A DNA stretch of 64,000 nucleotides from Candidatus Melainabacteria bacterium. Its GTDB lineage: Bacteria > Cyanobacteriota > Vampirovibrionia > 2-02-FULL-35-15. This document shows, in pieces, positions 59,066-63,835 of this stretch; position 1 is the stretch's first letter; the number at the start of each line of letters is the position of its first letter. The DNA lies in NCBI GenBank assembly GCA_016201905.1, contig JACQBQ010000001.1, positions 3,405 through 67,404 on the forward strand. Direction: 5' to 3'. Both the position numbers and the translations under genes were made by a program. The notes under the pieces are model-generated. The model worked only from the letters and a program-made list of their open reading frames with translations. It was not told the DNA's origin and searched no databases.

Positions 59066-61585
59066 ATGAAATACAAATGGCTCATAAGAGAATCAAAAGA
59101 AATTACAAAGGATTTTCTTCATACTGCTTTTGATTCAAGAGTTATTGCCAAGTTACTTTTAAATAGAGGAATTGATTCACCTGAAAAAGCAAAATCTTAT
59201 TTAGAGCCAAAGTTTTATAAAGAATCCAGACCAGAAGAAATCCAGGATCTGATAAAAGCAAAAGATCGAATCATTGAAGCAATAAATAAAAAAGAAAAAA
59301 TTACTATTTTTGGAGATTATGATGTAGATGGTGTTACTTCTACAGCTTGTTTACTAATTGCCCTTAGACAATTTACCGATAACATTGACTTTTATATTCC
59401 AAATAGGCTTACTGAAGGCTATGGATTAAATAATGAAGCAGTTAAAATTATAGCTAAAAAAAATAAAAAGGCTTGCCATGGCAAGCCTTTACTGATTACC
59501 TGTGACTGTGGAATAACAAACCATAAAGAAGTCAAGCTTGCAGGTGAGCTTGGTATGGATGTAATAGTCACTGATCACCATTCTTTACCTGAAGTTTTGC
59601 CCGATGCTTATGCAGTCTTAAATCCAAAACTTTTGCCAGGTGATCATAAACTACACTTTTTGCCCGGAGTAGGCGTTGCTTATAAACTTGCTAAGGCAAT
59701 TTTAGAGGAAAGAAAAGGAGAAGTTTGCAAAGAAGATCTTCTTGATCTTGTAGCACTTGGAATGATTGCTGACCTTGCACCGCTTGTAGATGAAAACAGG
59801 TATTTAGTTCAGATTGGTCTTGAAAAATTAGCAAGAACTGAAAAGATTGGTTTAAGAGAACTGCTTAGGATGTGTGGCTTTACTCCACAGGATAAAAATA
59901 GTCCTACGACAGAACATGTTGGCTTTGGAATTGCACCAAGGATAAATGCTGTAGGCAGGCTTACAGATGCAGCTCTGGCTGTAAGGCTTTTAACTACCTG
60001 TGATTTATTTGAAGCTGTTCAAATAGCTGGTGAACTTGAAAGTCAAAACAGACAGAGACAGTCACTCTGTGAAAGCACATTAAATGAAGCTGTTACGCTT
60101 GTATCTGAGCAGGTAGATTTTAAAAATGATAAATGCATTGTGCTGGCTAAAGATAGCTGGCATCATGGAGTAATTGGGATTGTAGCTTCAAGAGTAGTTG
60201 AAAAATTTAGTTTACCTACTGTTTTAATCGCCATTGATAAAGAACAAAACATAGCGCGAGGTTCAGGGCGCAGCATTGAGAAGTTAAATATTGTAGATGC
60301 TTTAACTAAAAGCTCTAAACATCTTGAGAAATATGGCGGTCATAAAGCTGCATGCGGACTAAGTGTAAAACCTGAGTTTGTTAATGATTTTATTTTTGAT
60401 TTTAAAGACAATGTAAATAAAATGCTTGACAATCAGAATTTAGAACCTGTTTTAAAGATTGATATGGAATTACCGCTTTCAGCTTTAGTTATGGATTTAA
60501 TGAATAAAGTAAATAAATTATCGCCTTTTGGTTTAGGAAATCCTATGTCAATTTTTACAAGCGATGAAATTGAAATAATTGGCATTAAAAATATTGGTAA
60601 AAACGGCCAGCATTTGAAGCTGACCTTAAGAACTTTGGATAGTGTCATTGCGAGGAGCAAAGAGACGTTGCATGCAACGTCTCCACAGCAATCTCAACAA
60701 CATGAAGAAGTGATCGAGATTGCTTCGCCTTTGGCTCGGAATGATGTGAAGCAGTTTGAAGCTCTAATCTGGAATCATAATGTTAATTTGCGATTTAATT
60801 TAGGAGATCAAATAAAAATCGCCTACACGCCAAAGTTAAATAATTACAATGGTGAGACATTTATACAGCTGGAAGTAAAAGACTGGCAGATCTTAAATGA
60901 TAAGAGTTTAGAAAATAAGAAAATTAAAAAAGAAGAAAAAGAAATTGAAATTTATGATTTTAGAGACAAAACACAAGAATTGTTAAGTATTCTTTCCTCA
61001 AGGCTTGATTCTGTAACCTGTTTTGCTGAGATTGAGCAAAAAAATCATTTAGATCTAAAAACCTTTTCAAGAAACAAAATTAAAAAAGCTGAAAGCCTTG
61101 TTTTTTTGGAAATCCCTCCTGACGAGTTTGTCTTTTTAGATATAATAAAACGCTCATGTGCTAAAAAGATTTACTTTGCATTTACCCAGCATCAAAATAA
61201 CTTAGAACCCCAGAATTTATTAAAAAGACTCATTGGTATGCTTAAATATGCAGTAAGCAATAAAAACTCAATCATAAACGAAACGGAGCTCCAGTCAGCT
61301 TTAGGTATAAATAGAACATCACTGGCTTATGCACTGGAAATACTTGTAAAGATAGGACTCTTATCGTATGAAAAGACAAACGGTGAATTAAATATCAATC
61401 TTTTAACTCCTGCTCGACAGAATTTCCTAGAGTTAATAGAATATAACCTGCTGGTTTCAGAGTTAAAACAAATTTTAGATTTTAAGAACTGGCTTTGTGA
61501 ATCTGATATTCTGCAAATAGAAAAGATGTTGAATGAACACAATATTTTGGCAAAGTTTATTTCTTATGAATCAATAAAGGTATAG
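59066..61585 (+). CDS. recJ: Single-stranded-DNA-specific exonuclease RecJ with a ~280-aa C-terminal extension
   Basis: DHH motifs (GDYDVDGVTS, TDHHS), the DHHA1 domain, and an OB-fold region carrying an in-frame GC-rich repeat insertion. Confidence 0.85.
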   Translation: MKYKWLIRESKEITKDFLHTAFDSRVIAKLLLNRGIDSPEKAKSYLEPKFYKESRPEEIQDLIKAKDRIIEAINKKEKITIFGDYDVDGVTSTACLLIALRQFTDNIDFYIPNRLTEGYGLNNEAVKIIAKKNKKACHGKPLLITCDCGITNHKEVKLAGELGMDVIVTDHHSLPEVLPDAYAVLNPKLLPGDHKLHFLPGVGVAYKLAKAILEERKGEVCKEDLLDLVALGMIADLAPLVDENRYLVQIGLEKLARTEKIGLRELLRMCGFTPQDKNSPTTEHVGFGIAPRINAVGRLTDAALAVRLLTTCDLFEAVQIAGELESQNRQRQSLCESTLNEAVTLVSEQVDFKNDKCIVLAKDSWHHGVIGIVASRVVEKFSLPTVLIAIDKEQNIARGSGRSIEKLNIVDALTKSSKHLEKYGGHKAACGLSVKPEFVNDFIFDFKDNVNKMLDNQNLEPVLKIDMELPLSALVMDLMNKVNKLSPFGLGNPMSIFTSDEIEIIGIKNIGKNGQHLKLTLRTLDSVIARSKETLHATSPQQSQQHEEVIEIASPLARNDVKQFEALIWNHNVNLRFNLGDQIKIAYTPKLNNYNGETFIQLEVKDWQILNDKSLENKKIKKEEKEIEIYDFRDKTQELLSILSSRLDSVTCFAEIEQKNHLDLKTFSRNKIKKAESLVFLEIPPDEFVFLDIIKRSCAKKIYFAFTQHQNNLEPQNLLKRLIGMLKYAVSNKNSIINETELQSALGINRTSLAYALEILVKIGLLSYEKTNGELNINLLTPARQNFLELIEYNLLVSELKQILDFKNWLCESDILQIEKMLNEHNILAKFISYESIKV
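60644..60746. repeat. GC-rich palindromic mini-element, copy 6 (near-identical 5' half to copy 2), inserted in-frame in recJ
   Basis: GTCATTGCGAGGAGCAAAGAGACGTTGCATGCAACGTCTCCAC...GAGATTGCTTCG...CTCGGAATGATG. Confidence 0.75.
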
Positions 61586-61587
61586 GA

Positions 61588-62121
61588 ATGACAGTGAAAG
61601 AACCAGAGTTAATAAAGTCAAAAATAAGGGATGTTCCTGATTTCCCACGAGAAGGAATTATCTTTAAAGATATCACTACTGTTTTGCGTGATCATGAAGC
61701 ATTTAAACATTCAGTTGATCTTTTAGCAAAGCATTTTGAGAAACAAAAAATTGATTATATAGCTGGTATTGAAGCAAGAGGATTTATTTTTGGCAGTGCG
61801 CTTGCATATAAGCTTGGAGTTGGTTTTATACCCATACGAAAGCCAGGGAAACTCCCTTCAAAGACTGAACGAATCTCATATGATCTTGAATATGGTAAAG
61901 ATAGCCTTGAGATTCATATAGATGCAATTGAGCCAGGGAAGAGGGTTTTAATAGTAGATGATTTGCTTGCTACAGGTGGTACAGCAGAAGCTGCAATTAA
62001 ACTTGTTAAAAAAATTGGTGGTGTAATTATTGGAATAGCATTTGTAGTTGAACTTGAGTTTTTAAAAGGAAGAGAAAAATTACCTGAGGATTGCAAGATA
62101 ACAAGATTGATTAGTTTTTAA
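61588..62121 (+). CDS. apt: Adenine phosphoribosyltransferase
   Basis: PRPP-binding VLIVDDLLATGGT and the flanking Apt-specific blocks. Confidence 0.9.
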   Translation: MTVKEPELIKSKIRDVPDFPREGIIFKDITTVLRDHEAFKHSVDLLAKHFEKQKIDYIAGIEARGFIFGSALAYKLGVGFIPIRKPGKLPSKTERISYDLEYGKDSLEIHIDAIEPGKRVLIVDDLLATGGTAEAAIKLVKKIGGVIIGIAFVVELEFLKGREKLPEDCKITRLISF

Positions 62122-62290
62122 AAATATTTCATTGTTAAACTTGAAGTTCCTGCTTTTTCCTGAACATAACACATCTAACTTGAAGTAATAAAGAATCTAC
62201 AAACAAATTACAGTGCATTACGAATAAAGCGAATTTGTATTAAGCAATTTTGTTAGAATAAATCTCAAAGTCAATAAAAGGAAATTTCAC

Positions 62291-63835
62291 ATGCCAAGCC
62301 GTATAGATGGGGTCAGGCAAAAGCCTGGCTTTGTACAGTCACAGGAAACCAATCAGGATGCTGCTTCTGCAAAAGCAACATCTACTAAACCTTATATTCA
62401 AAATAATGAAAAGAGTTCAACTTTAAGTAGAATAGCTAGCTTAGCTAGTCTTCTTGCTGCAATATTTGTATTTGAAGCAGGTAGCAAATCTTCTTTAGTA
62501 TCTGACTCACCTTTTAAAGGAATAACTACAGCTGAGAAAACAGATAATATTTTAGGAGACTATTATGCCAGCGAAGACATTGGCAGTGCATTGCGTAACA
62601 TACAAGGCTTTGAAGGAAGAGAAGCATACATTAGATCTTTACTTGGAAGAATGAATCCAGAACTTCTTCTCACTTCATCTAATCCTTATTATGAAACTGC
62701 TCTAGCTGCTTTCAATGAAAGGACTGGCTTACATCTTGCATGCTGGGGTATACAAAAAGGTAGCAATGATTTTATTTTTATAAATGACTTTTTAGGCAGA
62801 AATGCTGAGCCTGTAAGAATTGCTTTAACTTACAATGAAGTATCAAATACCAGAACAAAAGCAGATGTACTTAATTTGTTAGAAGAAAAACTAGCTGGGC
62901 AAAGACGAGAATTAAGTGAACAGTATGCTGTCTGGGCAAGATATCAGGATGGATATGATATTCCAAGAGATGGCAGTACTGCATGTATGGTGGCACTAGC
63001 TCTTAGCAATTTACCTGGTATGGAAACAGATTTAGTAAGAGCAATGGAAGTTTATAGCAGAGATTATGCAATGTCTATTGAATCTATATGTATTGATCCA
63101 GCGCATAAAAATGGAGTAGATGAAGGGGTAAGAGACAGAGGTCTTCGTGATTTACCAGAATACAGATCAGCAACAAGAAGTGAAATACTAAGAGAGTTTG
63201 AACGTGTACTTAAAAAAGCTATTGATGAAGGAAAATCAACAGTCATGTTCCATTACATGACACACGGCGGACAAAACAATCAAATATATGCATCTGACAC
63301 AACAATTGATCCAAGAGAAATAGCAGAATTAATCGCACAGAATTATAATGGAAAACCATTGTGTGCCCAGATAGATATTGTGATTTGGGCAGGCTCTTGT
63401 TATTCCAGAATGCAATTGGACAGAATAAAAGAATATTTTGACCAGCATGAAAACATAGCAGTTAGAAATCTAAGAATAATAAGTGAATCAAAATATACAA
63501 CAGCTGGTGCAAGTACTAGACCAGATAATGCTTCTCTTGTAAGTGACTTAATGACTGATAATTCAGGGCCATTGGATTACTACCGTTCCTGGTACCATGA
63601 ATATTTGCAATATCTTCAAAGTAAAAATATAAGACCAATAAATCCGTTAGGCACTTACCTACATGAAGTTAGATTTGCTGACTTAATGTCACGATTTGAT
63701 ACTTATAATAACCAAGATGCACAAGGCTTTCACTATTACAATGATCCAGAAACACATATGCGAAGTGGACGATTTTTTACCAATTTAAGACCAGTAATAG
63801 TCCAAAACGCAAACAATAAACCAGGATTGGTATAA
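62291..63835 (+). CDS. Hypothetical 514-aa protein with a putative caspase-like (clan CD) His/Cys dyad region
   Basis: STVMFHYMTHGG (beta-strand-His-Gly) then, about 47 aa later, IDIVIWAGSCYS (beta-strand-Ala-Gly-Ser-Cys). N-terminal hydrophobic segment LASLLAAIFVF. Confidence 0.55.
   Translation: MPSRIDGVRQKPGFVQSQETNQDAASAKATSTKPYIQNNEKSSTLSRIASLASLLAAIFVFEAGSKSSLVSDSPFKGITTAEKTDNILGDYYASEDIGSALRNIQGFEGREAYIRSLLGRMNPELLLTSSNPYYETALAAFNERTGLHLACWGIQKGSNDFIFINDFLGRNAEPVRIALTYNEVSNTRTKADVLNLLEEKLAGQRRELSEQYAVWARYQDGYDIPRDGSTACMVALALSNLPGMETDLVRAMEVYSRDYAMSIESICIDPAHKNGVDEGVRDRGLRDLPEYRSATRSEILREFERVLKKAIDEGKSTVMFHYMTHGGQNNQIYASDTTIDPREIAELIAQNYNGKPLCAQIDIVIWAGSCYSRMQLDRIKEYFDQHENIAVRNLRIISESKYTTAGASTRPDNASLVSDLMTDNSGPLDYYRSWYHEYLQYLQSKNIRPINPLGTYLHEVRFADLMSRFDTYNNQDAQGFHYYNDPETHMRSGRFFTNLRPVIVQNANNKPGLV

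Follow-up and report, generated by a model that had tools for sequence, protein, structure and literature searches.

Near the 3′ end of a 64,000-nucleotide stretch of a contig from a groundwater Candidatus Melainabacteria genome (GenBank assembly GCA_016201905.1, JACQBQ010000001.1, positions 3,405 to 67,404; "the window" below means this whole stretch) lies a gene whose product carries a His-Gly and a Cys motif of the kind found in cysteine proteases of clan CD. An initial annotation had read this signature by eye and described the product as a caspase-like hypothetical protein and candidate protease effector. The computational analysis reported here identifies the signature as that of a genuine caspase-fold enzyme, which standard domain models barely detect. 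The open reading frame was found as that annotation had described it, on the forward strand and 514 residues long, and its start codon is supported by homologues whose similarity begins right after the Met. An identical protein is held at NCBI under the name 'caspase family protein [Candidatus Melainabacteria bacterium]'. The gene and the parts of its product are listed below; confidence in the structural model is given as the predicted local distance difference test score (pLDDT).

62277..62282, + strand: Shine-Dalgarno-like AAAGGA, 8 nt 5′ of the ATG, read directly from the sequence
62291..63835, + strand: complete gene of the caspase-like protein including the stop codon, ATG start, 514 amino acids, from the open reading frame list and translation
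62291..62416, + strand: N-terminal tail, residues 1-42, hydrophilic (six Lys and Arg versus four Asp and Glu), predicted to be disordered with pLDDT <30
62417..62473, + strand: hydrophobic segment, residues 43-61 (STLSRIASLASLLAAIFVF), signal anchor or signal peptide, top Kyte-Doolittle window (1.73)
62474..62572, + strand: linker, residues 62-94, poorly conserved, varying in length and sequence in the alignment, pLDDT <50
62573..62965, + strand: family-specific N-domain, residues 95-225, with helices, a three-stranded sheet and a long helix
62966..63787, + strand: caspase/metacaspase-like catalytic domain, residues 226-499, with the alpha/beta fold complete up to a p10-like part at the C terminus, according to AlphaFold2, Foldseek, profile and Pfam C14 evidence
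63029..63031, + strand: Asp247 within GMETD, placed by the profile alignment to Yca1 at the first S1-pocket Asp found in metacaspases (GCxND)
63263..63268, + strand: catalytic His325-Gly326, invariant in 48/48 sequences, at the end of strand 317-324 and aligned to LHYSGHG
63392..63394, + strand: Gly368, two residues before the Cys, at the position of the second S1 Asp of metacaspases
63398..63400, + strand: catalytic Cys370, invariant in 48/48 sequences, aligned to the Cys in SCHSG of metacaspases

Catalytic domain and its place in clan CD

Both motifs are present where they had been placed: TVMFHYMTHGG spans residues 317-327 and contains His325-Gly326, and IDIVIWAGSCYS spans residues 361-372 and contains Cys370. 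The reported spacing of 47 residues, on the other hand, was recounted as 45 from His325 to Cys370. Clan CD enzymes span a range into which 45 falls: the distance is about 41-42 residues for legumain and caspase-3 and about 55-56 for metacaspases. A strict regular expression combining the two motifs, written post hoc, matched only this protein among the 79 stop-free stretches of at least 100 amino acids in the window, with 0.035 matches expected from shuffled sequences. A large protein collection yielded the identical protein and 15 homologues at 42-55% identity; the resulting clade of 16 sequences, the window protein included, was extended to a wider family alignment of 48 sequences reaching down to 18% identity. 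Within the clade a G-M-E-x-D motif that follows the domain's first strand never varies, nor do His325, Gly326 and Cys370, and in the wider alignment these three residues are the only invariant columns. Judged from these alignments, their conservation is real evidence against a chance motif.

Standard domain models recognize the protein only just. The match to Peptidase_C14 (PF00656; E=1.9e-4) scores 21.7 bits versus a gathering threshold of 21.4 and covers residues 291-362 only, and at E<0.1 only 5 of the 16 clade members match this model. Thus, of the three Pfam families that had been proposed as checks, Peptidase_C14 passes marginally, while CHAT and Peptidase_C13 do not match; two close homologues match Peptidase_C13 only at E=0.05, and one remote homologue reaches 22.6 bits versus its cut-off of 22.8. 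The Pfam models for CHAT, gingipain (C25), clostripain (C11) and separase (C50) gave no match to the window protein at E<=10 and none to family members at E<=0.1. No match was returned by NCBIfam or by single-sequence searches of the PDB either, and the earlier statement that the protein has no other domain hits was borne out, since nothing else in Pfam, NCBIfam or the PDB sequence search was significant.

Profiles built from the family reach further. The full-length profile retrieved 58 proteins at E<=1e-3 among 1.84 billion cluster representatives, without reaching canonical metacaspases; with so few representatives, the family appears to be small and to stand apart from canonical metacaspases and orthocaspases, which number in the thousands. 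To reach metacaspases in the PDB, a profile of the catalytic domain alone with remote homologues added (profile A3) was needed. Its best match is the yeast metacaspase-1 Yca1 (4f6o; E=8.4e-6), followed by Arabidopsis metacaspase-4, AtMC4 (6w8s; 0.0036), and Candida MCA1 (7qp0; 0.019); the bacterial protein GSU0716 (3bij) was matched weakly (E=0.19), with its HG and SC motifs aligned, and the best C13 enzyme, an asparaginyl endopeptidase, only at E=0.62. In the alignment to Yca1 three motifs are in register, 'lsgietD' with LRGCIND, 'lhytmHG' with LHYSGHG and 'aeSCysg' with FDSCHSG. For another Yca1 entry in the PDB, 4f6p, which we take to be the C276A mutant, the score was lower and the alignment ended before the Cys motif. 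As far as these profiles can tell, the closest sequence relatives of the protein are metacaspases. A match of the full-length profile to C-phycocyanin alpha (E=0.3) was below significance in a PDB search that otherwise returned noise, and it was set aside as probable chance. It covers about 65 residues (approximately 379-443, window positions of about 63425-63620) and is a curious one to meet in a non-photosynthetic sister lineage of the cyanobacteria.

An AlphaFold2 model was built with the 16-sequence alignment. The predicted template modelling score (pTM) is 0.74, and pLDDT in the core is about 90, mostly 88-99, whereas residues 1-94 (pLDDT <50) and 500-514 are disordered. From residue 230 onwards the model contains, in order, strand 230-237, a helix, strand 262-268, two helices, strand 317-324, a helix, strand 362-368, a helix, strand 391-398, two helices and strands 478-485 and 490-495, and this order, as modelled, matches the caspase/hemoglobinase fold. 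His325 directly follows strand 317-324 and Cys370 comes two residues after strand 362-368, so that His and Cys are at the C-terminal ends of strands adjacent in sequence. A Foldseek search of the PDB with the model gave 114 matches at E<=1e-3 (best E 5.2e-6), with template modelling scores (TM-scores), normalized to the target, of 0.5-0.6. The top 50 were all caspases, GPI8 or legumain; the non-caspase fold that had been named beforehand as the outcome speaking against a caspase-like protein was thus not seen. Both the clan CD fold and the strand-end placement of His-Gly and Cys are found in the model and the alignment. Taken together, four independent lines, the Pfam C14 match, the profile match to Yca1, the predicted fold and the invariant dyad, support the clan CD reading of the initial annotation. 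By Pfam the protein is a borderline C14 peptidase, by fold a member of clan CD, and functionally it is most like type I metacaspases.

The likeness to type I metacaspases (C14B; Yca1 and T. brucei MCA2) extends beyond the best profile match. They share L-x-G-x-x-x-D after the first strand, F/L-H-Y-x-x-H-G and S-C-x-S-G, all in register, as well as a single chain with contiguous p20-like and p10-like parts and the first S1 Asp. Yet the second S1 Asp is replaced by Gly in the clade of the window protein, the p10 region of the 'SGCxDxQTSAD' type has no significant similarity in the caspase-like protein, and the Pro-rich or zinc-finger prodomain is absent, with a predicted membrane anchor and a new 130-residue domain in its place. 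Hence half of the metacaspase S1 signature is present, and the p10-like region, made up of strand 391-398, two helices and the hairpin 478-495, is visible in the predicted structure only; the sequence match to the p10 region of Yca1 amounts to just 5.9 bits (independent E-value 81).

Bacterial orthocaspases, such as MaOC1 of Microcystis, and GSU0716 are likewise prokaryotic caspase homologues with a His-Cys dyad. Orthocaspases are abundant in Cyanobacteria, the sister lineage, and are often fused to extra domains (PMC6426788). By definition they have no p10 domain, classification being by p10 hidden Markov model score, and their extra domains are usually C-terminal (PMC6426788); in contrast, the model of the caspase-like protein has the full fold and its extra domain is N-terminal. 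By the measures of that class the protein is prokaryotic and has the dyad; its model appears to contain a p10-like region, which is undetectable by sequence. A literature search on orthocaspases and Melainabacteria found nothing. Animal caspases (C14A) are among the top Foldseek matches (TM-score 0.5-0.6, E down to 5e-6), and the Pfam 'Caspase domain' passes. However, identity is only 8-12%, the one profile match, to an ancestral caspase-6, is weak (E=0.56), the protein lacks the QACRG motif, and no Arg/Gln S1 pocket for binding Asp is evident. With legumain and GPI8 (C13) the protein shares the clan CD fold and, in the case of GPI8, a presumed membrane tether, and in the wider family the residue two positions before the Cys is often Glu; in the window protein it is Gly, and the C13 profile match is weak.

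Predicted substrate pocket, putative membrane anchor and N-domain

The S1 pocket of metacaspases binds basic residues through two Asp of the p20 domain, Asp95 and Asp211 in TbMC2, and orthocaspases and metacaspases cleave after basic residues (PMC6426788). In the caspase-like protein Asp247 takes the place of the first of these; it is invariant in the 16-member clade and present in 35/48 sequences of the wider family. The second site, two residues before the Cys, is Glu in 24/48, Asp in 6/48 and Gly in 3/48 sequences of the wider family, while in the clade of the window protein it is Gly (Gly368) in 16/16. By its sequence, this clade appears to have exchanged the second acidic residue for Gly and thereby altered the pocket. 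Because Asp247 occupies the first site, it is a reasonable, if uncertain, guess by analogy that the enzyme prefers Arg or Lys at P1.

The N-terminal hydrophobic segment pointed out in the initial annotation was confirmed. Residues 43-61 (Kyte-Doolittle mean 1.73) form the sole hydrophobic segment of the protein, and equivalents with values of 1.3-2.2 are found in all 16 clade members. The tails preceding the segment, where they comprise at least 13 residues, are all net positive except one, which is balanced. By the positive-inside rule the tail would be cytoplasmic; since the close homologues combine net-positive tails with a single hydrophobic segment, we infer a signal anchor with the N terminus inside and the C terminus outside, which would leave the protease domain in the periplasm. 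The longer remote homologues (675-1133 residues) are built differently, having N-terminal extensions of 250-690 residues, rich in Glu, Lys, Leu and Ala, without a strong hydrophobic segment. None of ten such extensions tested had a significant Pfam match; presumably they are helical-repeat regions. The absence of the hydrophobic segment implies that localization differs within the family and suggests that the long homologues are cytoplasmic versions of the same protease module.

A 130-residue N-domain precedes the protease domain in every family member with an intact N terminus. Modelled alone with AlphaFold2, it reached a pLDDT of 90.8, yet a Foldseek search of the PDB returned no credible match (best E 1.2), and there was no significant Pfam or PDB sequence-profile match. 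Its residues N142, P174, Q211 and W215 are kept in 37-42 of 42-46 sequences of the wider family. In a profile search the N-domain was found only together with the protease domain, matches confined to it being short fragments. It could act as a prodomain, bind the substrate or have a regulatory role.

Genomic neighbourhood and distribution

Upstream of the caspase-like gene lie two genes:

59066..61585: RecJ-like exonuclease gene (recJ)
61588..62121: adenine phosphoribosyltransferase-type gene (apt)

The order recJ, apt, caspase-like gene is kept in four Melainabacteria species, represented by the window and loci L003, L005 and L009, and is not found in L007; the shared order points to a chromosomal gene that has been inherited vertically. 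Sequence identity between the species sharing it is about 90% for apt, about 60% for RecJ and about 50% for the caspase-like protein, and the divergence of the last fits an exposed, fast-evolving protein. The conservation of apt itself is unusual relative to its neighbours recJ and the caspase-like gene, as seen when window positions 59066-62121 are compared with L003, L005 and L009. On the + strand, the 169-nt spacer between apt and the caspase-like gene has no sigma-70-like site, and scans for promoters and terminators around the gene gave no more matches than shuffled sequence.

The close clade was found only in metagenome-assembled genomes of groundwater Melainabacteria, only three of which were returned by the locus search with alignment A1; the wider family extends to at least one genome of Candidatus Peregrinibacteria. 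Apart from recJ and apt, the neighbours are varied housekeeping genes, the downstream genes differ between loci, and two remote family members (L012 and L013) are also situated among housekeeping genes. Across eight distinct genomic contexts no defence, CRISPR, gasdermin or toxin-antitoxin gene was adjacent, and the earlier label of 'effector' found no support in any partner of these kinds at the loci examined. The caspase-like gene is without a conserved partner or a defence context.

The window ends 165 nt past the stop codon of the caspase-like gene. Directly downstream, beyond the window, a gene for a 953-residue protein (L001 3248-6109) starts about 200 bp past that stop codon. The Gly/Ala-rich hydrophobic N-terminal region of this protein (residues 69-334) is 46-57% identical to proteins in two other species, whose genes also lie downstream (L003 11157-13475 and L009 7493-9001), so that the region is found 1.5-3 kb 3′ of the caspase-like gene in 3 of 6 species loci. 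Its C terminus matches Pfam PRTase-CE (27.7 versus 27 bits) and PADLOC PRTase_III-A (2e-7), whereas the L003 homologue has a different C terminus. A conserved N terminus joined to a variable C terminus recalls polymorphic effector proteins. The association with the caspase-like gene may equally be plain synteny. A literature search on 'PRTase-CE' found nothing.

Proposed role and alternatives

It is probable that the gene product is a divergent cysteine endopeptidase of clan CD with the caspase/metacaspase (C14-like) fold, anchored in the membrane, with putative envelope or exported proteins as substrates and probably a basic P1 residue. A positively charged tail, a hydrophobic anchor, a flexible linker, the 130-residue family domain and the complete caspase-like domain would follow one another along the chain. 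The anchor would tether the protein to the cytoplasmic membrane, most likely with the protease domain in the periplasm, where it could cleave one or more envelope or exported proteins. Cys370 would act as the nucleophile and His325 as the general base, and Gly326 would help to form the oxyanion hole, as its counterparts do elsewhere in clan CD. The P1 residue would probably be basic, in a pocket modified by the Gly at the second acidic site. The open reading frame, the fold, the correspondence of the motifs to the metacaspase active site, the unvarying dyad, and the distribution and gene context of the family are results of the analysis, while catalytic activity, membrane topology, the P1 preference and a housekeeping or envelope role rather than one in defence are inferred.

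The large downstream gene raises the question of whether the protein is instead a processing or releasing peptidase for the 953-residue protein, the two forming a functional pair that resembles a conflict module or a polymorphic toxin. Releasing peptidases of a caspase-like type are known from polymorphic toxin systems, and the short distance of about 200 bp, the recurrence of the N-terminal region near the caspase-like gene and the variable C terminus, PRTase-CE here and different in L003, would all suit such a pair. However, the Gly-rich protein does not occur in the flanks of L005, L007, L011, L012 and L013, the three positive loci share recJ-apt, so that co-occurrence may be synteny among relatives, and other genes intervene in L003 and L009; we therefore regard this pairing as unlikely. 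Decidedly unlikely, in our view, is a more specific proposal, in which the N-domain and the caspase-like module constitute a clan CD family of their own, not described before and restricted to groundwater Melainabacteria and bacteria of candidate phyla, acting in the clade of the window protein as a periplasmic maturation or releasing protease for a neighbouring polymorphic Gly-zipper membrane protein. Another possibility concerns the chemistry rather than the substrate: like GPI8 and the ligase-type legumains, the enzyme could be a transpeptidase or transamidase that attaches or remodels envelope proteins at the membrane, and not a hydrolase. The Foldseek matches include GPI8 (8imx_K; top identity 16%, low root-mean-square deviation) and legumain (6ysa), the caspase-like protein would share the membrane tether of GPI8, one remote homologue comes near the Peptidase_C13 cut-off, and the Glu that the wider family carries two residues before the Cys recalls E-x-C, the C13 motif. 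Yet the profiles favour metacaspases over C13 (8.4e-6 versus 0.62), the clade of the window protein has Gly instead of Glu at that position, and neither partner subunits nor candidate substrates are encoded nearby, all of which makes a transamidase quite improbable.

A role as a defence or programmed-cell-death effector, activated by a sensor and cleaving a gasdermin, a toxin or an antitoxin, was rejected on gene context and is highly improbable. What speaks for it is the fast evolution of the gene and a PADLOC 'caspase' match, but this match is weak and local (E=1.5e-4; 48 residues, 291-338) and limited to the generic His-motif region. Some orthocaspases, MaOC1 for example, are reported to act on toxin-antitoxin modules (PMC7935541). 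Here, no gene for a gasdermin, an NLR/STAND ATPase, CRISPR, CBASS or a toxin-antitoxin system adjoins the caspase-like gene in any locus, and its conserved chromosomal position in four species speaks against a mobile defence island. That the protein has lost catalysis and serves as a pseudo-protease or scaffold, or that the motif arose by chance in an unrelated fold, is scarcely credible. The Pfam score is indeed marginal, and pseudo-orthocaspases make up 8.6% of bacterial orthocaspases (PMC6426788), but what defines a pseudo-variant is that its His-Cys dyad has been lost, whereas here the dyad and Gly326 are the very columns that never vary in 48 sequences; the pseudo-enzyme was rejected because of this invariance. 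Moreover, searching by fold and searching by profile each led to clan CD enzymes.

An active, membrane-anchored endopeptidase related to metacaspases therefore remains our preferred interpretation. It opens no new question in itself, given that thousands of caspase homologues are on record from prokaryotes (one survey counted 11,208; PMC6426788) and that the name 'caspase family protein' is already in use at NCBI. If the protein did release the neighbouring polymorphic protein, this would amount to a conflict or effector system with caspase processing, in a relative of the cyanobacteria that does not photosynthesize. As a rare family that combines a novel accessory domain, an altered S1 pocket and a putative anchor, it is a reasonable target for studying how clan CD has diversified outside Cyanobacteria and eukaryotes.
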